A stretch of DNA of 64,000 bases from positions 29,512,001 to 29,576,000 of the forward strand of contig OX597823.1 of the NCBI GenBank assembly GCA_951406725.2, in the 5' to 3' direction. This DNA is from Octopus vulgaris. Lineage: Eukaryota. A program made the translations under genes and the position numbers. Positions 9,790-57,826 of this stretch are shown here, in pieces. Each line of letters begins with the position of its first letter. The stretch's first letter is position 1. The notes beneath the pieces were generated by a model, which searched no databases, was not told the DNA's origin, and saw only the letters and a program-made list of their open reading frames with translations.

Positions 9790-10268
9790 CAGTAAAGGCC
9801 TCGAATACCGCGGGTGTTACGTTCCAAAACTCCCCGCGATTAGTGAAAATCCGCAAAGTAGAAACAGTACTGTACTGTATATATATTTTCTCATTTATAT
9901 ATATTTATTTTATTATAAATGCAAAGCAACACCACACGCTCGCTTCCCGAGTTTCGTTTTCCATACAGGATGTGCGATTCTTTGTTTACGGTGCACAGCG
10001 TATTTCCTTTTGATATATTTTAATTAATGTGTTATACAGTGCAGTACTGTATTTTTATTTATTGATTTATTCATTTTCTGGCGTGAAAATGCTTATTTTA
10101 CCACAGAAAGAATTAAAATCTAAAAAAAAACAAAACAAGCACCCATCGGCCGCAGAAACCCGCGATATACTGAGGAGTCCGCGCTATAAATCTACATATA
10201 TTAGCCAGAAAATTCCGTGATGTACTAAGGGTGCAATAGGTAAACCACGATGCAGCGAGTGCTTACTG
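9790..10268. mobile_element. pogo/Tigger-like MITE, second copy
   Basis: CAGTAAAGGCCTCGAATACCGCGGGTGTTACGTTCCAAAA...GAGTGCTTACTG; shares subterminal sequence with 8304-8565. Confidence 0.65.
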
Positions 10269-10750
10269 TGTGTACACACACATACAGACACACACGCACG
10301 TGAAGAGTGAATTCTTGTAACGGTGAACGTCCTAGTTGAATCTACAAACCGGTTTCCGTCAGCCCAGCTGGAGATCAGAGGTGAGACGGCGCTGTGAGCG
10401 AGCTAATATGAAATACTATTATTCATGGAGGCCATAGGTCGTGCGTTCAATCCTGCTGCAGACATATCATTGTCTTTCTCAGACAAAACACTTTGTTCTA
10501 TTTTGCCACAGTTCACCGAGGCCATCACACTTACTTTTTATCAGAACGTCTGTGGATGTTATCCAAGACGACCAAACGAGAGGGGCTCGTACATGGTTGC
10601 TCGATCTGCAAAACATAGCAGCCCAATTTCCCTTGTATCAAACGCTAACAAGGTTAAGAAATTCGTTGCAACAACATGGTTCTGATTTCAGTCTCATTGC
10701 ACAGCACCACGGCAGGTGCCTTTTTCTATAGCCCCGGGCCAACCAATGCC

Positions 10751-11158
10751 GGATCTTTTCGGTTTGAACGGCAGTTTTTAACATAATTTCTAGGTAACTA
10801 AAAAATTTTAAACTTCGTATACTGGTAGAATGTGTTTATAAAACATCTTTTTCTCTTGGCTTTATTGAGAAAATTCTATAGTTTGTAAGATATTTATTGT
10901 TTTTTTTTCTTCAATTTCTGCAATTTCAACCAATCAATGACGTCCATTGAGGTAAAAAAACATTCTGTGCCGTATGAATATGTCCCTCGTTTAAGAAACA
11001 GATTGGGTTTATTTACATTTCTGAAGAAAAAAAGATACCCTTCCCTCCACCCCTAACCCTAAAACAGATTGAAATAGATCGATACTAGGGTCATAATTAT
11101 GGGTGACAATTTCATATGACACCGCTAGAAAAAACTGCCGTTCAAACCGAAAAGATCC
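10751..11158. mobile_element. MITE with GG..CC termini (Merlin-like) inserted into a SINE
   Basis: TIR GGATCTTTTCGGTTTGAACGGCAGTTTTT; 8-bp flanks CCAATGCC/TTAATGCC; internal CCCTAA repeats. Confidence 0.8.
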
Positions 11159-12191
11159 TTAATGCCTGTTAGTGGATTTGGTACACGGAAACGGAGTAAA
11201 ATCCTGTCGCGCGCGCACGTGTGTGTGTCCGTGTGTCCACTATACCAGCCTGGTAATCAGTTTTACAGCAAAAGCTAACGATAGAATAAGTATATGATAA
11301 AAAAAAAAAATCAACTACTGGGGTTGATTTTTAGACTAAAACCCTTCAGGACGGTGCCCCAGCATGGCCGCAGTCCAATGAGTGAAGCAAATATAAGATT
11401 AAAATTACATCGGATAATCCATTGTTAGACACATAATATTTGTGAAATAGACGGGTCAGTCTAGATTGGAACTATTTTGACGGTAATTCGGTTCAATGAA
11501 TGCCTTCGTACAAGGCCTAAACAATAGAGAAATTAACCCTTAAGAGTAGCCGACGTCTTCTCCACAATGGGTTTCGGTTTTTATCCACTTCAAATACTAG
11601 GAAAATAGAATAAAACTGAGCTAAGCACAAGTTGGGAAGAAAAAACAGGAAATGAGAAGTTTACTACGTTCAACCTCTCAAGAAAAACGGGTGATTGTCA
11701 CAGCCACCAACTCTAAAACTATAAATATTACGAAGTATGAGCGCTAAACAGTGATATATATATATATAAACGCACTGTTATTACCAGTTTAAATATGTTT
11801 GAGGCACGTTTGGCCTTGTAAATAAGCCATTTACTGTGTTTTGACAAGGGGGTGAATTTCTCGATGTAGACAAATGGTGTAAACAGACGACGAAGATTAG
11901 TTCGCTGCGCCTCCTTTCCAGACAGAGATGCAGCATTTCGTAGTAGTTGTCTCCTCTTCGGCCAGAGACACTGAGCAGGGGGCACTGCGAATTGATGAAA
12001 GACAGTGATTCTCTTCTGCTATTCCAGTCAATTTCTTTATTAACCATGAGGTTGAGAAAAAGAGGGGACGATACGAGGACAGACAAAACAAACATTGGGG
12101 GTCAGGGTATCGAATGAGACGAAACATATGAATAAACAAACAATTAAAATATATACAGTTGTGTCTGGGGAGAGTCATTCTCTTTTAATGC

Positions 12192-12360
12192 CTTATTATT
12201 TAACACACTCACCGGTAAAATTTCCACTTATTTTAATTCTCTAAAATTTTCGTTGCGTCTTGCAAACTTTTCAATAGTCTTGACTATTGAAAAGGTTGCA
12301 AGACGCAACGAAAATAAGGAATAAGTGGAAATTTTACCGGTGAGTGTATTAAATAATAAG
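12192..12360. repeat. Long fold-back palindrome
   Basis: Inner 34-bp arms 12246-12279 and 12282-12315 with a 2-nt loop and one mismatch; outer arms about 40 bp. Confidence 0.9.
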
Positions 12361-12540
12361 TGTTTATTGAGCGAAAACACCTAAAGCTCCGGCAAGGGGT
12401 AGTGGCGATCCCTGCTGTACTCTTTCGCCACAACTTTCTCTCACTCTTTCTTCTGTTGGCCTGCGGGGTGGCGCATTGTGACCAGCGATGTATAGCAACA
12501 TCTCATAGCCTGGTCGGTCACAGTGATATATATATATAGT

Positions 12541-12700
12541 AAATAATAATAAAACGAAGAAAATACACAAAGGAAAACAACCATGCGAGGACGTGGTACA
12601 TGTAAAGTATTAGCAGACGCTCAGAGAAGGAAAGAAAGATGGTTTAACGTTTCGAGCAGAGCTCTTCTTCAGAAACTGGAGAGCCATATAGAAAAGGAAG
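12541..12700 (-). mobile_element. Penelope-like terminal module, second family, hammerhead at 12642-12676
   Basis: Minus strand GUUU-CUGAAGA-A-GAGC(UCU)GCUC-GAAA-CG-UU-AAAC; flanked by (TA)n; homologous to 49485-49680. Confidence 0.65.
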
Positions 12701-13292
12701 AATATATATATATACATACATATATACGTGTGTGTATGTATGAATGTATGTATACCAAACCGTAATGACTAGACCAACCATGGTAGTAACAAATGCAACC
12801 ACCATCACGATCACAACCACTAATTCCATTACAATAATCGCAGTAACTACCACAACCACCACCTATACCACCACAGCAACCACATCCACATCAACAAAAG
12901 TAAGAATCACAACAAGAGTGTCACCCTCATCACAGCCACCCCACCCCCCGACCGTCACTATCGTCATTACAGTCAGTCCGGAGCGTGTGTTGTGTATATA
13001 GAATCTGTACTAGTGAGGTGATTGGGTGAGAAATGGGTTAACGAAGAAGAGAGGGAAACATAGCAATGAGGGAATGGAAAAAACAATAATGTGTGTATGT
13101 GTGTGTGTGTGTTTATGCGTTTTATCTGTATGAACGCGTTGTACACACACAAACTTATATATATGTATGTATATATATATATATATATACATATTTGTAA
13201 GTGCTTGTATCCGATAGACATAGTATTTGTGTGTATGTATACGTTTGTGTGGCGTATGTAGTTGATTTATATTATTTATAAATATAAATGTG

Positions 13293-13331
<39 letters not shown>

Positions 13332-14215
13332 ATGTGTGTGTTGTTAAGTCAATTTATAAACAAAAGAATGGTTAAAGTTCTACTTTAATGTAAATGAATG
13401 AAGTGTCAAATAATCGTAGTTGAGAGGAGGAGGTGGCTGTAGGAAGAGGTGGCAGTAGGAAGAGGTGGCAGTAGGAGGCGGGAGTAGTACTAGTAAAAGT
13501 AGCAGGAGGTAGGGAGGAAAATGTCATAGTATGAGAGGGGTAGGAAACTTGACTGAAACATTATCACTTGAAATCATAAGGGTTTTTTTTTTTTATTATT
13601 CAATGGTGACGATGGCGATGGTGGTGGTGGTGGTGGTGGTGGTGGTGGTGGTGGTGGTGGTTGTTACGAAGCCAGTTGACTGCCCTCATTGAGCGCGTAT
13701 GACCAAATGCATTCTAACCGTGCCCATCCTGGTCCAACGCGTCCTTGACATGTCACGCAAGCCGCGCGCGTTGTATGCACGAACATACGCGTAGGTTTGT
13801 AGAAGTTGTGTTACGATCCGGGAAAGCAGCTCACGATACAAATGTAACGGGTTAAGACGCCAGTCCAAGGGGGGGGGGGGGGGGCTGCGCAACCTGTTCG
13901 CCACACATCTCTGACCAAGCCAGGTCTGATTTCTCTGAAGAAGAAGTGGATGTATGGTGTGGAAACTACAGAGTGACGGGCAGCCGGACCTCCTTAAATA
14001 AACTATACATATATATATATATATTTTGTCGGACTAAGGATTAAGGATTGTGCTCGTGCATGCGTCAGGCGCTGGAATTTCCACTCCAGTCAGTAAGTTC
14101 ACTGAACTCTCTAAATTGTGTGTGTGCGCGTGCGTGCGAGTACGGAATACACACACACGCTCATGCATACATATATACATACATACATGAATGCATATAT
14201 ATATATATATATATA

Positions 14216-14347
14216 CAGGGTGTCCCCAAAAATGTGTATACGCACCTTAAATAATTGTAAATTTGTTATTCTTTGTAAGCCTAGTACTTATTCTATCGTT
14301 CTCTTTTGCCGAACCACTATGTGTATACATATTTTTGGGACACCTTG
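14216..14347. mobile_element. Tc1/mariner-type MITE containing a SINE fragment
   Basis: TIRs CAGGGTGTCCCCAAAAATGTGTATAC / GTGTATACATATTTTTGGGACACCTTG with TA flanks. Confidence 0.7.
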
Positions 14348-14400
<53 letters not shown>

Positions 14401-14402
<2 letters not shown>

Positions 14403-14592
14403 CGGGAAGGTTTACGAAAATAAACAAAAGACGAAGGCTAGGTGGAGTACAAACAAACAAATGTATTAGTATAGTGCTCAGGAATAGAAATAGAAAAAGT
14501 CTTTTACGTTTCGAGCCTACGCTCTTCGACAGAAAGATACACAGAAAAAAAAAACAAGGAGAGAAAAAAATGCGTTTAGGAGCTAACGATCT
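14401..14592 (-). mobile_element. Short Penelope-like terminal module with variant hammerhead (14500-14537)
   Basis: Minus strand UCUUU-CUGUCGA-A-GAGC(GUAG)GCUC-GAAA-CG-UA-AAAGA; embedded in (TA)n. Confidence 0.65.
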
Positions 14593-14618
14593 CTCTCTAT
14601 ATATATATATAAAAATAA

Positions 14619-14647
<29 letters not shown>

Positions 14648-14649
<2 letters not shown>

Positions 14650-15027
14650 CTCTTTTACTTGTTTCAGTCATTTGACTGCGGCCATGCTGGAGCACCGCCT
14701 TTAGTCGAGCAAATCGACCCCGGGACTTATTCTTTGTAAGCCCAGTACTTATTCTATCGGTCTCTTTTGCCGAACCGCTAATTTATGGGAACGTAAACAT
14801 ACCAGCACCGGTTGTCAAGCGATGTATATCCATGAATCTATACACACACACACATATATATATACGACGGGCTTCTTTCAGTTTCCGTTTTCCAAATCCA
14901 TCCACAAGGATTTGGTCGGCCCGAGGCTATAGTACAAGACACTTGCCCAAGGTGGCATACAGTCGGACTGAACCCGAAACCTCATGGTTTGTAAGCAAGC
15001 TACTTACCACACAGCCACTCCTGCGCC
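14648..15027 (-). mobile_element. SINE family A, full length
   Basis: Near-identical to 36038-36462 and 47641-48044; CORE-like CCTTGGGCAAGT after the head. Confidence 0.9.
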
Positions 15028-15031
15028 TATA

Positions 15032-15047
<16 letters not shown>

Positions 15048-15062
<15 letters not shown>

Positions 15063-15381
15063 ATATTAGGGAATAAATCCAAAATTACAGGGAAAAAATC
15101 AGATTTAGGATTAAATCCAATTTTATAGTAAAATATATAATATTAATTCGAGACAAAACCACTATTTTGCAAATCAAACAAGGAGAGACTTAATCAATAC
15201 ATAAAAAAATTTAATATAAAGTAAATAAATCGCCACTACAATTGTTTCATGTCTTCAAATGACATTCGTCAGGTGGATTTCCGATCTTCTATTCAGTTTT
15301 AATTTACTTTATATTAAAATTTTTTATGTATTGATTAAGTCTTTCCTTGTTTGGTTTGCAAAATAGTGGTTTTGTCTCGAA

Positions 15382-15395
<14 letters not shown>
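15048..15395 (-). mobile_element. Penelope-like element end with inverted arms enclosing a hammerhead
   Basis: Inverted arms 15133-15226 and 15302-15395; hammerhead in the spacer; unpaired tail 15048-15132; both ends in (TA)n. Confidence 0.65.
15233..15276 (-). ncRNA. Minimal type I hammerhead ribozyme, canonical core
   Basis: Minus strand: CCAC-CUGACGA-AUGUC(AUUUGAA)GACAU-GAAA-CAAUUG-UA-GUGG; all core nucleotides present, helices I and II pair, helix III is the palindrome ACAAUUGU, cleavage after GUA. Confidence 0.85.
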
Positions 15396-15422
<27 letters not shown>

Positions 15423-15907
15423 TATATTTGTTTTAGCAGATTACCTTAAGCCTTTTTCGTATCGATATTACCCTTTTAATATGAGTTTATATCAAACGAA
15501 TATAAGACATCGTATGCAAAAGGGACTTTTCAACAATGGACGGCGTATGAAATGTTCGTTCTGTCTAAGGAAACGAAGCTTTGTGTGTTCCGACAAACCA
15601 CCAACGATGATTTGGCTGGTTTCGTTCAGGAAATTTTTCTCTTGCAGTTTCCCTTCGAGCGGGACAACAAAGTTCTGTCAATAGTGAACCTTTGAAAACC
15701 GTGATTTAGGAAAATCCAAAGCAAATTGCACGAGAATTAGCAAAACAGGGCAATTCAAGTCACCCTTCGATTATAAAACAATTTTAAAGAAACTTGGAAA
15801 AGTGTCTAAACTTAGTCATTGGTTGTCCTCTGTACCTCATTGAGAAACAAACTTGCGACCGAACCTATCCTGGGTCCTCTATAATTGCATCTAACGAAAA
15901 TGACAAT

Positions 15908-16304
15908 GGAGTATAATTTTTTGGCAACGTAACATGGCAGTCCTGGTTTACGACTAATGTTGTTGTAGTTTAGCCCCAGGAGACATCGTCTCCAGCTGGC
16001 TATACGACACGATCTGTGTCCTTATATTTTCGAACAAGGGAATCTAGCACCCCAACTCAGCTCAAAACAGTATCTGTGTATCGCGATTTCCGGATTATTT
16101 CCCTTCATCAGCACAGAATAATCGTTACGGCTAGAGGTGGCGCTGCCAAATTCCCGTTCGAAATATATAGTTTTCAAAGTGACAATATAAGGACACAGAT
16201 CGTGTCGTATAGCCAGCTGGAGAAGATGTCTCCTGGGGCTAAATTACAGCAACATTCGTCCTAAACCAGGAGTGCCATGATAGGTTTGCAAAAATCTTTA
16301 CTTC
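15908..16304. mobile_element. Fold-back element with long inverted arms enclosing a hammerhead
   Basis: Well-matched arms 15933-16028 and 16184-16279 with degenerate extension to 15908/16304; interrupts a mariner remnant. Confidence 0.7.
16073..16117 (-). ncRNA. Minimal type I hammerhead ribozyme motif
   Basis: Minus strand: UCUGUG-CUGAUGA-AG-GGA(AAUAA)UCC-G-GAAA-UCGCGA-UA-CACAGA; 6-bp helix I, palindromic helix III AUCGCGAU, base of helix II imperfect. Confidence 0.7.
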
Positions 16305-17024
16305 AGAGTACTGTTGCTGAATATCTCTCGTTGTGAAATTTAAAAATAGTAATTTTCGAAAACGATAATATTGCCCAAAACATTACGATACTTAAATATG
16401 GAAATTTCGTCTCATCCCTCTTACTCTCTTGACCTTACTCCGTTTGATTACCATCTTTTGAGATTGTTCCAACATTATTAAAAGGGAAGACAGATTCTGA
16501 ATTGGGTTGGGGTTAAAAAATGATATGAAGTGTTTCTTTGCATCCAGATCAATTTACCGAAGAGATTGATATCATCTTATCAATAATAACAAGGGGGAAA
16601 TATTATCTTGATTAGAATATATTAAGACCAAAGAAACATTTGTTTCTTTCCCATCTTGAAACGCTACAAGACTTTCTTTTCAACAATGAAAGAATTGATT
16701 AATGAACGTAGATAGATTACATAGTCTTGTATCTCATCTGTTCTCTTTCAACAACACACAATAGCTACGCGTGCGCGCACACACACACACACACACACAG
16801 TCGTTAACGCGTCGAACAGAAAAGCCTGGAGGTATTCAATTATTCCGACTCACTGGGCTCCGAGTTCACATCCTATCCAAGCCTTTCGTGATTACCGTTT
16901 CGCCACGCCAGTCCGCCAGGGCGGCGAATTGGTGGACGAATAACGAAGTGGACCAGGTGACTTGTGGTATTCATTCCGTCTCTTCACACACATACACATC
17001 ATATACACACATAATAGTGTGGCT

Positions 17025-17556
<532 letters not shown>

Positions 17557-18276
17557 ACATATATCCGACTTTGATATTAGTAACAAACATATGAAAGCCG
17601 TGCAAGAGAGCAAACAGCCGCATACATGCTTCTTTTGCGTCCAATACACACACATACGTACATACATACACACACACACTCACACACCAATGACAAAGCA
17701 TGTTGCCTATTAAAGCACACCTCTCCACTTCTTCGCTCAGCTGATTAAAGAGAGAGGGGAGGGGGACGAGAGAGAGCGAAAGCACATACCACAACCATTA
17801 GCAACACATGCCATCAGTGTACCCCCAGCCCATACCGCACCACGCCCCACACGCAATCCCCCGCCCGCCCGCCCGCCTCTCGTCCCCACAACCGTCGAGC
17901 CAACAGAAACGGCTGTCCTCCCCCCCTCCCCCGTCCCATATCAAGCCGCGTGGTCGACAAAAAGGAAATAACAGCCAAATCTTGCTCAGATCTTTTTAAC
18001 TCTGCCCTACCACAGTATCTTTTTATATTCTCTTACTTGCTTCATCAGTCATTTGACTGCGGGCCATGCTGCAGCACCACCGCCTTATACGGGGTTTTAG
18101 TCGGATGTACATCAATGCTTCGGTAACTTCAAAAGAAATTCCCTCGTCATAAAATCGCTTCCTCTTAGTCTCTTTCGCTCTCATTACTTCAAATGTTCCC
18201 GCAAGCCCATATGTAAAAAAATAAAAGTTTTTTACGGAAATCATCGACGGAAACGTGCTACTACAAACGAAAGATC

Positions 18277-18357
<81 letters not shown>

Positions 18358-19977
18358 GACGGGCTTCTTTCAGTTTCCGTCTACCAAATCCACTCACAAG
18401 GCTTTTGTCGACCCGAGGCTATAGCAGAAGACACTTGCCCAGTGGGCTACGCAGTGGGACTGAACCCGGAAGCTTCTTATTACACACCTTTGAACATACA
18501 TCTGCTAGATCAAGGCCAAACTGGAGCAAATAACAATATGGCAACTACGTCAGAAAATCCTTAACCTCAACAGCACCCGCCCCCCACCACCACCACCATT
18601 GTCATTACAGAAGTCACTGAAGGGAGCCTCTTAAGAGGTCATTCGATCGGTTAGAAATAACAACCAAATAAATCACACCTACAAATCACACACACTGTTA
18701 TCATTAAGGAAGAAATACGTTGGGTCAATTTAGCACCTGGATTCCGTACAGAATACCAAAAACAAAAAAAATGAGATGATCCCGAATGGAACACCTTGCT
18801 TTGATGACGGGGAATACTGAATCGGAGCCGACTTGGGTCTCCAGGTCATCAAACAAGATACGCAATCCCCCACCACATTACATATATTACATCATCCGCC
18901 GCTCACGGATCCAACACACACACACACACAGACATTACCTCTACTAATTCACCACACTATTGCTATTCATCACACACATACCCACCACCACATTTATCAT
19001 AATTACTGTACAACATACACACAACACCGCCCCTATATCCACCACCACCACCACAACCACCAGCAGCAGCAGCACTACGACTATCATTGTACACACGAAC
19101 TCCCCCCCCACCGCCACCACCACCATCATTATGCAGGGAGTCAATCAGACGGACGGACAGTCAAACAGACAGAAGCGACCACACATTAAAAGGCATGCAC
19201 AGCTGAAGTGGGTCAACATCACCATTCCATATATGGTCATAGACAAACTGTTGGACTTCAGATGGGATGGGATGGGATGGGACGGAGGGTGGTGGTGGTA
19301 GTGGAGAGAGGAGAGGAGAGGAGTGGGTGAGGTGAGGTGGCTCCACAACACAAAACTTTGAAGTGGTGGTGGAAGCGGCGGAGATAGTTGTATGGACTCA
19401 AGCAGGTATGAGACGGCAGGAGGGGGTGCTGAAGTTATGAAAGAGAGAGGTGGTGGTATGAGAAAGGGGTGAAAGTGTGAGGTGTGTTATCACACACACA
19501 CACATACACTGTGGTGGGAGAGGAGGAAAAGGGAGAGGTGGCCATGACATAGCCTGTTGTTGTTGTGGTAGTGGTGGTGGTGGTGGCAGCGGCGATCGTA
19601 GTCCTAACTTTGAGGTACAGGACGAAGTGAAGGGGAGGGGGTGCTGTAACTATCACAGTGGTTATAGTGTGTGTGTGTGCGGAGGTGGGGGTTATGTGGT
19701 TATCACACATGCTATGGTGGTGGCGACGGCGGTGGTGATAGCGATAAGGATGAAGTGTGAAAATGCAGAGGCTATCACACACACACACACATTCATTGAT
19801 AATAGTGGTGGTGGTGGTGGTGGTATCGACTGAGGGTGATGAGGTGAGGGCGGTGGAGATAGCCGTCGTTGTCGTCGTCGTTTAACCTGGTTTAATCCTT
19901 ATCGCTATGTCAGTCATATGATCTAAGGAATTCCAAATGTGACCTTTCCGACATTGTAAAGCTATGTAGGTCTACAG

Positions 19978-20176
19978 CAGTGGTTCCTAGCGGACGTAAA
20001 CAACACGCACGCCACCCGTTTTCGGCGGAACCCTAACCCTAAACAGCGGGTGTGCGTATTCTTTACCCTCGCCGTGGTTCCCAACCAGGGGTCCGCATAG
20101 GTCCGTGAACTAAATCCACACATAAGGGTAAGCTTATTAAAAGGGTCCTTGGTAGTGAAACGGATGGGAACCACTG
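19978..20176. mobile_element. hAT (Charlie-like) MITE carrying a nested 85-bp MITE
   Basis: CAGTGGTTCC...GGGAACCACTG with perfect 8-bp TSD GTCTACAG; nested element 19989-20073 duplicates GTGGTTCC. Confidence 0.8.
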
Positions 20177-20697
20177 GTCTACAGTATACCTGCAGCACAA
20201 CCCAAACGGAACTGGTGTTGGCAAGCTCCCAACCCGGGTACAAAGAGGGCACCAAGCTGATGAGGACTACAGTAAGCAGTAGAAGGAGGGATGTTTGGTT
20301 GTTGTGTCTAGCAGGTTGAGCGACCACGCTCCTGCATTGAAGGGAGTAGTTGTGTGAGAAGAAGGACGCAGTGTATTGGTATTTGTGGTGGTCATGGTGG
20401 TAGTGGCGGGTGGCGATGATGATGATGATGATGATGACAGTATTGGCAGCGGTGGTAGCGCTGTGTTGTGGTGTTGCCGGTGTAGAGATGGGGGAGGTGG
20501 CGGCGGCGACAGCGGTGACAATGGAACACACACACACACTGGTTGACAAGGAGATAACGGAAGAGACATAAGGAGGAATTGTGGGAAGAGAGATAGGGCC
20601 GGAAGTGTGCTAAGGAGTGATGGGGGCGAGATAAATCTTAGCATTGTGTCAAAGTGGCAATAAGTCGAGGTGACAGCAGCAGCAGCAGCAGTAGCAA

Positions 20698-20750
<53 letters not shown>

Positions 20751-22327
20751 ATGGAGTATTGTTATTAGTGGTATCTGGTGGTGGTTATAGTTATAAAGGG
20801 CAGTAGACTTGTAGGTAATATATATTTCTTTATTGCCCACAAGGGGCTAAACATAGAGGGGACAAACAAGGACAGACGAACGGATTAAGTCGATTACATC
20901 GACCCCAGTGCGTAACTGGTACTAAATTTATCGACCCCGAAAGGATGAAAGGCAAAGTGATAGTAGTGGTGTTTGAGGCAGTAGTGTTATTGGTGGTGAT
21001 GGTGATAGTGGTAGTGGTGGTGGTACTAGTAGTAGTAGTAGTGATGGTTATCATGATACTAAGCGTATGATTGTGTGGGAACTTCTGTTTCTGGCGTTAT
21101 CATCCCTAACCGAGCTGTCATGTATGATGTGACAGGCAAGAAGTCGGCCGAACGACCAGCTTCGAACCACTCGCCGTTACACCTGAGAACCAACACTCTT
21201 ACACACCAACGTGCAGCGGTAAATCGCCTGGGATATTAATGCGCCAGTGTGGACATGTTCGGCACGCGGTGACCCTCATTGAACAGAATGGGAAGTCTGT
21301 ATCGTAAAATAAAAAAAATAAAAAGTAAAAAGTAAGGTAGAGTTTCACAAATGTCATGTAGAGAGAATAAACTTCGATTAACTGGAATTATTCATGCTAT
21401 CGGTAACAAACTAGAAAGCCACGATACACCAAACAGCGATGATTAATTTGAACATGTATACAGTTGTATTTAACCGGTCACATTGCACATTTATACAGTT
21501 ACACGTTCGTGAACACTCGAAAGTGAACTCGATGCGAAAAAATGTCTTGGTAGAATGATAGTCTTCATAGAGAATGACTATGAAAGATGATGTCAGCGAA
21601 CTGAAGAGGATGTTTCGATATCGTTATGCTTCATCAGCTATGGACATCAAATCCGTCGTTCAACGAATAAAAGCTGGGGCTCTTCAAAATGAAAAAAAAT
21701 TCAACAATCAAGGGAAATAATCCCTATAAAATAACTAATTGAAACTTTTAGGTGAAGTCTAGGTATACACCACCTAGTAAATGCTTATTAGCAATACATA
21801 GTGTTTGCGCGCGCGCTTGTGTGTATGCATGTTTGCATACATAAATGACTGTTTAACTAAGCTGGCACATATCTTTGTGTATATGTCTGTGTATCAGTTT
21901 TTAGAATAGGTATAGAGTATTCCGCTGTATCTTGCGAGGCGAATAAACAAGTTGCTATCAGGGAGCGCATACAAATGTGACAAATTGTCTCAAAAAGCTT
22001 CGGATAACCCATGCCGGCGAAGAGAGATGGATACAAAGACGTTGATAATTATATAGATATATATATATATGTGAGTATATGTGCCTCAAGATGTGGAGGA
22101 AATATTACCATAGAAAAACAAATCAATTATTAATTCAAGGAGAGTTGCTTAAGGCGGAAGATCAGCTGTTGTTCGAGATGTAATCTCTAGGTGATCTACG
22201 ATGTTAAAGAGCGCACCACTGACGAAAAGATACGGGCATGTAAATCCTCCACACAAACTGTACACTGTCCATGTAATGTCCCACAATTCAATGTCCCCCG
22301 TGGCAAATAAAATACCATAACCACCAC

Positions 22328-24472: not shown

Positions 24473-24709
24473 ATATATATATATCGTGTTATGCGAAGAA
24501 GCCGGGCATGGCCCCATAATTTTCGACTCGATTCAAATGTAACAAACGACTCTAAATCGTTGTTAGACTATCCGCGTAAGTGGATAGTCTAAGTCCGAGT
24601 AGTTATTATTCAGGCATCAAGTTGTATTAGTTGTAATAATGAAATCAAATCCAATAGTAATATTTTGAAATCCTTTACTGCTTTAACTGAGGAACGTAAT
24701 ACATGCATT

Positions 24710-25142
24710 GGATCTTTTCGGTTTGAACGGCAGTTTTTTTAAATAATTTCCACGTAACTATAAACACTTTTAAACTTCGTATACTGTGGTAGAATGTGTT
24801 TATAAAACATCTTTTTCTCTTGGCTTTATTGAGAAAATTCTATAGTTTGTAAGATATTTGTTGTTTGTTTTCTTCAATTTCTGCAATTTCAACCAATCAA
24901 TGACCGTCTATTGAGGTGAAAACATTCTGTGCCGTATGAAAATGTCCCTCGTTTAAGAAACAGATTGGGTTTATTTACATTTCTGAAGGAAAAAAAGATA
25001 CCCTTCCCCCACCCCTAACCCTAACTAACCCTAGCCCTAAAATAGATTGAAATGCAATAGATCGATACTAGGGTTATAATTATGGGTGACAATTTCATAT
25101 GACACCGCTAGAAAAAAACTGCCGTTCAAACCGAAAAGATCC
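24710..25142. mobile_element. MITE with GG..CC termini (Merlin-like), second copy
   Basis: Same TIR; perfect 8-bp TSD CATGCATT (24702-24709, 25143-25150); internal CCCTAA repeats. Confidence 0.85.
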
Positions 25143-25849
25143 CATGCATTTCCTATCATATATTACGCAAACCGGGAACGTACGTATTAAATAATCTCAA
25201 AATATCATTATCTGGTTTGATACACACACAGACAAGACACACATAATATGCTTTCGTTCATATATTGAGTTCTTAGCTAATAACCTTTGCACAAAGAAAA
25301 AAAAATAAAGAAAATACTGATAATATCTATATGATATGATATTTTTCTCTGTGTGTCTATATGTCTGCGTGTGTATGTGCATATCAGTGTGTGCATGCGT
25401 GAGTGTTTTTGTTAGTACTGGGGTAGTAGCGGTGTTGGCAGGTCTGGTGGTGATAGGGGCGATGGGGAGGGGGTGGAAAGTGGTGGTTTCTGAAGTGGCA
25501 GAGTTGATAACAGAGGTCGTTGTGATGGTGGTGGTGGTGGTGGTGGTGGCGGCAGCGGCGATGGTGATGGTGTTGAGGGCGGCGGCGGCGGCGGTGGTGA
25601 TTTAATACTAATAACCCGCCTACAGGAATTGTAATTTCTGCATATTGTATCTTATTTGTTTATTTTGTGGCCTTATTTGTGTATTTCTTTTGTTTGTACT
25701 TGCTTATTTTCCTTGCTGTTGTTGTTGTAGTAGTTATTGTTGTTGTTATTGAAACGTTAAAAAATGGGACGAAGTAGAGAGAAAACATGAACTAGGAACT
25801 ATTTTCACAGGAAGAAGAGCGAAGGAGGAGGTAAAGGGGGAGGAGAACG

Positions 25850-55744: not shown

Positions 55745-57543
55745 CCTTCGAAACGTTTAGTAGATGAAACCTTAGCGACTGAAGAAGGGGATTTTTCGTT
55801 GTGCTTATTGTCCTGTATCTCTCTTTTTTTGCTTGTCTTGTTCCTTGGTTTGTGTCTATGTTTTTCGTCTCTCTATGTGTTCGACGTCTTTTTGGTGTCC
55901 TGTACACATATATGCGTGTATATGTACATGTAGAGGTAGGTACGTACATATATGTTTATATATATGCATATATTTTATTAACATATATATATATATATAT
56001 ATATATTTGCAGGCTATGGCCATGCTGGGGCACCGCCTCGAAGAATTCTAGTTGAACGAATTGACTCCCCCGCCCCGTCATACATATATATATATATTTA
56101 TTCTTTTACCGAGCCGCTGGTGTTACGGGCAAGTAAAACCAGCAACACTGGTGCTCCAGCATGGCCGCAGTCTAATGACAAATAAATGGAAAAAAAAATA
56201 AAAGATTTCACCACCACTCCGACATCCCCACCCTTATCTCCACCGTCCCCGCCCTCCCCGATTTGGCAGCCCGGTGGCGATGGTGGTGGGGGAAATGAAT
56301 GAGAGGAAATAGGGGGGGGGGGCAAAAGGCTGTGGTGGTAGTGGTGGGAGAGGTCAAGTTAAGAAAAGAAAAGAAAGCAGCATCTAAAATAAGATGGAGG
56401 GAAGGGTTAAAAAGAATGTTAACGGGGTAGGAGGATGAAAAGAGGGAGAGGAGAGAAACAATGAAGGGTTAGAGGAGGAGGAGGAAGGGAAAATGGAAAA
56501 GGAAAACAAAGAAACAAATTATAAAGTAAGAATGCAGACAGGTAGGAGGAGGAAGAGGAGATAGAGAGAGAGAAGGAAGGGAGAGAAGACAGTTGTTTGC
56601 AAGCAGGTGTAGTGTAGTTAAAAGCCCATTGGTCAGTCTTAATTGAGCAGACCGATGACGAAAAATGTTCCGGCCAAGACTATCTCGTCTGATTGTATAT
56701 ACAAAGACTACTGCATTAATTGTACATATCCTTTATTTTTAAAATGGTCAGTAGGATGTGATTTGAGAAAGATTTGGTTGCCATTTCTAGCTGGTCTATC
56801 AAACTACCCGAGCTTTTCGCGTTTTCCCTGCGTCAGTTGATACAACGCTACAACGTAATCTATAATGGATTGTAGCGTAGTATCACATGGTATGGTTTAA
56901 AAAGTAACGTATTTGTAGATTCAACAGTGACACTATCTCTGTGCTACACGTACATGTAACTGTCAGTTGAAACATACCCCTGATGATATATCGCAGTGTA
57001 GAATATACTTAATGCTGATACCATTTAAAATTGCATATCACTAGTTCTGAAACCTGTCGCTTTGCCGAAGGCAAGATGGTAGAATTTTAAATTAAAATGT
57101 TTTTTGTCCATTCAAAATGCTATCTTTTTATACAAGATATAAAATATATTCGGATTTCAATACAGTCTTTGAAAGAATCAGAAAGTTATTAAACTTCAAC
57201 TTCTATTTTAGTTTTCAGAAAAAAAAATATCTTATTAAGGGTTTTCAATTGGATGAAATATCGAAAAATCGCTCGTCTTTTTTAAGTGAAGGCTTTTAAT
57301 GATTAATTTTTTAATATTACTTGTGAAAAAAAAAAGTTTTTAACTAGATGCGTTTTCCATAGACAACATTGCTAATCAAGGTGTCGTCTTCATCATTATC
57401 ATGTCTTTCTGGGTGTTTGGACAATTTGTAGGAAACTTTAGCTGTTATCTCTAGCAAGTCGAGTGACCACATAAAAGACATTGAATGTATGTGTGTGTGT
57501 AGGGGGGTAGATACCCATAAAACTACCACATATGCTGATAGTA

Positions 57544-57807
57544 TTGGGCTGGTGCATAATTATTGCAGTTTTTTTTTCCAATAAAATTCAACAAAAACAA
57601 TAACAACATGTAACAAAAACATCTTTAAATGATTATTCCGGAGCATATTCACCATCTACTTCAATTACTGCTTCCGATTTGCTTGCTAGACGGTCAGACC
57701 GTCATTTAAAGATGTTTTTTTGTTAAATATTGTTATTGTTTTTGTTGAATTAAAATTTGTTGCAAAAAACAAAAAAAAAAGCCGCAATAATTTATGCACC
57801 AACCCAA
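57544..57807. mobile_element. Mariner-derived MITE
   Basis: TIRs TTGGGCTGGTGCATAATTATTGC / GCAATAATTTATGCACCAACCCAA, TA on both sides; minus-strand internal remnant EAVIEVDGEYAPE* resembles a mariner C-terminus. Confidence 0.8.
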
Positions 57808-57826
57808 TATTACGTCTCCAAGAATA

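Follow-up and report, generated by a model that had tools for sequence, protein, structure and literature searches.

We believe that the element lying inside a dead mariner of the 64-kb window (the whole stretch of DNA analysed) is a short insertion of a Penelope-like element (PLE), and we put the probability of this reading at roughly 0.88. It would consist of two 5'-truncated, hammerhead-bearing terminal repeats arranged head to head, with two fixed outer ends and variable inner junctions. Since the copies of the family have their outer ends in common but not their central part, the element is likely an ordinary insertion of this class and not a new type of DNA transposon. The reading rests on the anatomy of the element, its one-sided tail, the continuity of the hammerhead with the left arm and the variable junctions. 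Among the traits of PLE insertions, fixed 3' ends combined with variable 5' truncation are found at the locus or in the family, as is an inverted 5'-truncated copy with a copy-specific junction (18 distinct joints listed). The original prediction described the element as symmetric and MITE-like and as "not a standard TE category"; its architecture is in fact that of a published form of PLE insertion (the legend to Fig. 2 of PMC8557442 and excerpts of PMC3846280).

Table 1. Features of the element and its surroundings (positions counted from the first letter of the window)
Feature	Positions	Strand	Basis or remark
N-terminal side of a decayed mariner transposase, with frameshifts, stop codons and internal deletions	15620..15909	+	P0028 match, profile
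Candidate TSD, left copy, 11-13 bp	15895..15907	+	11/13 match to 16357-16369; 1-nt overlap blurs element boundary
Left arm, formed by the tail-less 3' end of the hammerhead-strand copy	15907..16028	-	arm alignment; contig ends
Long imperfect stem native to the repeat, lengthening helix I	16029..16162	-	fold, majority letters
Minimal type I hammerhead motif	16073..16117 (read 16117-16073)	-	descriptor search; predicted
Remaining 5'-most part of the hammerhead-strand copy, ending at the truncation point	16163..16183	-	X10 contig ends
Head-to-head junction, nearly private to the locus copy	16183..16184	.	depth dip
Right arm: shorter inverted copy, beginning at the mirror of 16028 (native stem base)	16184..16305	+	arm alignment
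One-sided tail of about 50 nt, hairpin-forming, overlooked originally	16306..16357	+	depth, loose ends, fold
Candidate TSD, right copy	16357..16369	+	11/13 match to 15895-15907; 1-nt overlap blurs element boundary
Decayed mariner transposase, C-terminal part with YSPDL-like motif	16368..16538	+	Mos1 match

The repeat family and its outer ends

The stretch or a part of it is contained in 20 of the 24 public sequence runs listed, which bear three organism labels, with two further rows of small share. Four of the 24 were aligned to 15760-16450 at 80% likeness, namely the DNA contig sets X1 (organism A) and X10 (organism C) and the raw RNA runs X22 and X23 (organism C, about 6% of each); 9066 contigs of X1 and 4984 of X10 aligned to the locus. 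The summed depth amounts to 19,000-1,200,000 over 15904-16359 against 0-222 in the flank bins (1,700 and 803, for X1 and X10, in the first bin beyond the right end), a figure that reflects abundance and does not equal copy number. The element is a single member of a repeat family that is very abundant. Two RNA runs labelled insect metagenome (X19 and X20) have small word shares, 0.12 and 0.07, which may be due to contamination or mixed samples and carry no weight as evidence; the neighbouring repeats are, presumably, of cephalopod appearance.

The inverted arms announced by the original prediction are borne out, with 14 mismatches in 122 positions in exact register (125 nt at 88% identity at the first pass), and a single rod is the predicted fold of the 411-nt stretch (z = -21.9, with 0 of 100 shuffles equally stable). 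Most arm mismatches of the locus copy are private drift, because majority letters nearly equalise both arms and leave only 5 internal differences between them; reads could align to either arm, and the majority shows one dominant arm sequence and no more. The notion that these mismatches (10 of 14 being transversions) are fixed features of the family was dropped on the same ground.

The element is not "symmetric", as it had been called: beyond the right arm the family sequence continues for about 50 nt, to approximately 16357. Family-level depth reaches the bin 16336-16359 and then drops more than 100-fold, and at about 16357 there are 152 contigs of X1 and 143 of X10 that diverge into mixed sequence (agreement 0.46 and 0.45). 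The tail is predicted to form a hairpin (z = -2.6; 4 of 300 shuffles are as stable). At the end of the left arm, the family letters give way to mixed flanking sequence within a few bases past 15907 (rows 15916 before, 16292 behind). This second class of ends coincides with the arm end; the family thus ends at either of two fixed positions that lie about 50 nt from each other, and the locus copy carries one of each class, tailed on the right and tail-less on the left. Both classes are present in all four aligned runs (X1, X10, X22 and X23), with a tail/arm depth ratio of 0.22-0.66.

TA is the target-site duplication (TSD) of the Tc1/mariner superfamily. It is present neither at 15906/16306 nor at 16358, where the arm ends were checked for the TSD of this superfamily, and the originally noted absence of TA flanks is thereby confirmed. 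The statement that there is "no obvious TSD" has to be amended, as the corrected right end yields a candidate match (2 of 13 positions differ, both being C/T), though both stretches are also readable as native mariner codons, which is a rival reading. A match of this quality was equalled at 14 of 5000 random places with fixed boundaries, but in 37 of 300 under a loose search. We regard the pair as a candidate TSD of the insertion; the examples of PLE TSDs in excerpts of PMC3846280 measure 8-10 bp.

The hammerhead and the variable centre

The predicted hammerhead is composed of a 6-bp helix I (16117-16112/16078-16073), an intact core starting at 16111, an extra A at 16104 after A9, a helix II of three pairs (G-C, G-C and G.U, 16103-16101/16094-16092), a second extra base, G at 16091, before G12, and a palindromic 2-bp helix III (16087-16080); its predicted cut site lies between 16079 and 16078. 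At 16094, about 97% of the depth has the letter giving helix II the form GGG/CCC, and this majority form is not the GGGA/UCCC that the consensus had been expected to restore. The min-HHR of metazoan PLEs, according to the portions of Cervera and De la Pena (2014, PMC4209133) at hand, is of type I and has an extra nucleotide between 9 and 10.1, the pair G10.1-C11.1 and a short palindromic helix III implying activity as a dimer; all these marks are present in the locus motif. Such ribozymes are mostly dispersed single motifs, and the locus is likewise, the likeness being one of motif only.

A descriptor with helices I and II of at least 8 bp together detected 4 motifs in the window, whereas 20 shuffled versions gave 0-1 apiece. 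Rfam called no hammerhead at the locus; this blank is uninformative, because the other two motifs inside 10000-22000 are also unlisted. In about 6% of two fragmented, apparently unstranded RNA-seq runs, which is a weak test, read ends pile up neither at the cut site nor elsewhere. One of the four motifs (12274) sits in a DNA palindrome and may be a chance match; 12192-12360 is a near-perfect, almost loop-free palindrome of 170 bp with sub-threshold Rfam matches to microRNAs, likely a small fold-back DNA element.

The "unrelated hammerhead" of the original prediction is a real motif with an intact core, and it is not foreign, as contigs link it to the left arm without a break (e.g., 15920-16126). 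What had been described as a second inner inverted repeat corresponds to the long stem native to the repeat (z = -5.7 in the locus copy and -7.3 with majority letters); all four majority changes applied in the centre mend or strengthen a predicted pair. Because majority letters repair pairs and stabilise the stem, the inner repeat is, according to the fold, a conserved extension of helix I.

The truncation point is marked by X10 contigs spanning 16004-16184, 16007-16184 and 16012-16184, which end there with unmatched letters left over. The depth at 16183 is 746 (X1) and 421 (X10) against 88,988 and 18,749 at 16176, i.e., about 1-2%, and among the rows listed no joint or indel bridges 16183/16184 at family depth. 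The joints examined come from short contigs and comprise those with the best support, 15 of 199 rows and 12 of 70 rows with filler; with 3 opposite-strand joints, 1 skip in the left arm, 2 "go back" joints and 3 duplicates excluded, 18 distinct left-to-right joints were pooled. Among these 18, the whole hammerhead is retained at one and mirror symmetry at one, while the left breakpoints fall at 16025-16053 in 14; some right-hand positions near 16184 are constrained by where the reference arm begins. The filler comprises 1-40 nt among the rows listed, and the best-supported joints have a depth of 63-258, where the flank contig of the locus itself has about 71. In all four runs the depth relative to the arms is 0.16-0.25 for the hammerhead and 0.05-0.11 for 16120-16167, where a fixed unit would give 0.5; the higher divergence of the centre (26-31 differences in about 180 nt) depresses its depth. 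The fixed symmetric element originally conceived does not agree with these data: 17 of the 18 joints listed lack a complete hammerhead, the centre varies, and the ends are asymmetric, an outcome that the original prediction itself had named as refuting it.

Rival readings and the presumed course of insertion

The dead-mariner setting is confirmed on both sides. The right flank 16377-16532 matches Mos1 (E = 1.4e-4); the left flank 15620-15814 matches the mariner protein P0028 (E = 2.8e-5), which carries Pfam Transposase_1, and 15740-15909 scores higher on a mariner profile than all 600 of its shuffles. Single-sequence searches of PDB and plasmid tblastn gave no match for the left flank, and Pfam gave 1 weak unrelated match on 12 translated frames. 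At the insertion site the mariner lacks about 74 codons, and the plus-strand arm and tail do resemble, by eye, this missing stretch in the correct order. One might suppose that the distal arm and the tail are mariner sequence, the 3' end of the family coming from a mariner relic and the locus being its source or a homology-guided landing. The tblastn piece 16328-16441 agrees with this (E = 3e-4 against P0028); however, it contains genuine mariner sequence past 16357. Arm and tail fail to outscore shuffles in 14 of 15 frameshift-tolerant comparisons with single proteins, and on the mariner profile, whose thinness (14 stretches) limits its power, 220 of 600 shuffles score as well with majority letters and 459 of 600 with the window copy, against 0 of 600 for the left flank. 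The supposition was rejected as not rising above shuffles in the frameshift-tolerant tests, and we consider it very improbable.

Just as little credit is due to a fixed MITE-like or fold-back DNA element with a captured hammerhead, moving as a symmetric unit, a reading that is already largely refuted. Long arms with fixed outer ends would fit it, and the depth at 16183 in X1, up to about 10 times the single-locus level, suggests that a few copies may share the junction. Nevertheless, the tail is one-sided, TA flanks are absent, the joints listed have no junction in common and the hammerhead has only a fraction of the arm depth (0.16-0.25). The hammerhead is, moreover, continuous with one arm, and the capture of a ribozyme by a DNA element, as proposed in the original prediction, fails on this continuity together with the variable centre and the one-sided tail. 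A small but somewhat larger chance belongs to a non-autonomous retrozyme-type master (short hammerhead monomer, tandem arrays and circular RNA) that uses PLE enzymes, the locus being its truncated inverted insertion; the insertion mechanism would be the same as for a PLE, and only the master element would differ. Retrozymes are reported to derive from PLE pLTRs (excerpts of 10.64898/2026.07.22.740005). The type I hammerhead, the lack of a coding frame in the element copy and the rod-like fold agree with such a master, and the two "go back" joints among the rows listed hint at partial tandems; yet there is one hammerhead only, 15420-16720 contains no tandem array, and the rows listed include neither a monomer-length return joint nor a pile-up of RNA ends. 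Non-LTR retrozymes, in the portions of Cervera and De la Pena (2020, PMC7229834) at hand, are likewise non-coding, have a type I hammerhead and occur in animal genomes, but they form head-to-tail tandems of 150-450 bp monomers, whereas the locus is a single head-to-head insertion.

We return to the PLE insertion. The other suggestion of the original prediction, an inverted-pLTR Penelope derivative, is supported by the tail, the junctions and the hammerhead, except that it is not a fixed symmetric unit. We presume, judging from the published biochemistry of PLEs, that a PLE protein acting in trans would nick both target strands and that each nick would prime reverse transcription of the same RNA end. 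The inner start site would give the tail-less end 15907, with a cDNA reading through the hammerhead to 16183; the outer start site would give the tailed end 16357, with a cDNA of 174 nt that halts at the foot of the RNA stem; repair would then join the two cDNA ends. The symmetry would arise anew with each insertion, and the near-central place of the hammerhead would merely follow from its position immediately upstream of the end that is copied. The locus copy has probably drifted since its insertion and is now inert as a mobile element; its transcript would form long double-stranded RNA. The tail of about 50 nt exceeds the 30-40 bp usual for PLEs, which counts against this reading. So do the second extra base of the hammerhead, the lack of read ends piling up at its cut site, the two mismatches of the candidate TSD and the mariner codons missing at the site. 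No RT or GIY-YIG gene was found: there is no second copy of the element within the window, and an exact 20-mer from the arm gave 0, 0 and 0 matches in the metagenome, viral and prokaryote collections.

The same layout recurs about 500 bp to the left in an unrelated family (15065-15395), with arms of about 100 nt (8 mismatches in 106) between TA/TAA repeats, a hammerhead on the minus strand at 15272 and a one-sided hairpin tail (15065-15132) on the arm opposite to that of the main element. Because of this common layout, we presume a shared insertion process and no special element. Two more PLE stubs are probably marked by a minimal hammerhead standing alone between TA repeats (minus strand, 12672; about 12528-12700) and by a degenerate hammerhead at 21637 (21580-21660).

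The window contains other repeats as well. The fold-back at 57539-57812 is likely an internally deleted mariner MITE, with ends that we take to resemble mariner terminal repeats. The copies at 10751-11158 and 24703-25149 (89% alike, 410-450 bp, terminal inverted repeats of 29-38 bp) represent a conventional MITE-like family. Opposite-orientation copies of a repeat of about 400 bp, of which the window holds many, flank the element at 14651-15017 and 17309-17557.

Comparison with published elements and implications

According to excerpts of Arkhipova et al. (2013, PMC3846280) and Craig et al. (2021, PMC8557442), insertions of endonuclease-positive PLEs (Penelope/Poseidon, Neptune, Nematis and Hydra clades) share with the locus a 5'-truncated copy joined to an inverted truncated copy, an extension at one end, a TSD of about 10 bp (a candidate here) and a hammerhead in the terminal repeat; the locus differs in being a 450-bp stub without a coding part, known from terminal sequence alone. 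An inverted truncated copy with a one-sided tail is described in the portions of PMC8557442 and PMC8969392 at hand, and inverted pLTRs with a 31-bp tail in those of PMC3846280. Both strands are cut and extended by a PLE, and the tail is the stretch between two RT start sites, as stated in excerpts of PMC11167929 (Frangieh et al. 2024). In the same excerpts, Poseidon PAc of Anolis carolinensis has, like the locus, two fixed ends bounding a stem-loop tail and a hammerhead upstream of the start sites; unlike it, the locus has a tail loop that is not AC-rich and no open frame of more than 29 codons starting in or after the hammerhead, and the likeness is sequence-based only. Naiad and Chlamys share the layout and lack canonical hammerheads. 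The architecture is thus already in print, and the family adds another example; the family itself is not described in the literature matched by full-text search, and the supplements of PMC4209133, which list invertebrate motifs, may bear on it.

The joints suggest a relation to RNA structure: 14 of the 18 listed lie within about 25 nt of the stem base, and the inverted arm of the locus stops exactly there. The 135-nt RNA stem is conserved, and the clustering at its base is suggestive. A second suggestive result concerns A>G and T>C changes over 15907-16357, which account for 45 of 106 and 49 of 118 variant places in RNA (X22 and X23) but for just 4 of 59 and 5 of 52 in DNA (Fisher p = 2e-5 for X22 against X10) and would fit A-to-I editing of the hairpins by ADAR; the RNA and DNA are not matched by animal, and some of the changes confined to RNA are explained by a single divergent copy that is expressed. 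Editing of the A at the cut site (16079, about 40% of RNA reads) is not claimed, because non-editing changes at 16078, 16085 and 16108 are similarly frequent and suggest that a single divergent copy is being transcribed. The core of the hammerhead is apparently damaged in one of the expressed copies. Heavy editing of a lizard Penelope and of a palindromic frog repeat, along with a high double-stranded RNA potential in octopus, is reported in excerpts of PMC5625713. We propose, tentatively and with more doubt than confidence, that the 135-nt rod blocks the PLE RT and sets the stub length, yielding a large number of perfect hairpins of 100-150 bp that would be a main ADAR substrate in this animal, like inverted Alu pairs in primates.

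In itself, the element is ordinary debris of a known class of retroelements, and it warns that inverted PLE stubs mimic MITEs and that their tail and TSD are overlooked if the element is trimmed at the arms. If the side results hold, the family would offer thousands of natural records of where the PLE RT starts and stops relative to RNA structure; these would bear on the origin of the inverted forms of PLEs, a question named as open in the part of PMC8557442 at hand, and a repeat class behind the abundant double-stranded RNA and A-to-I editing would be named.
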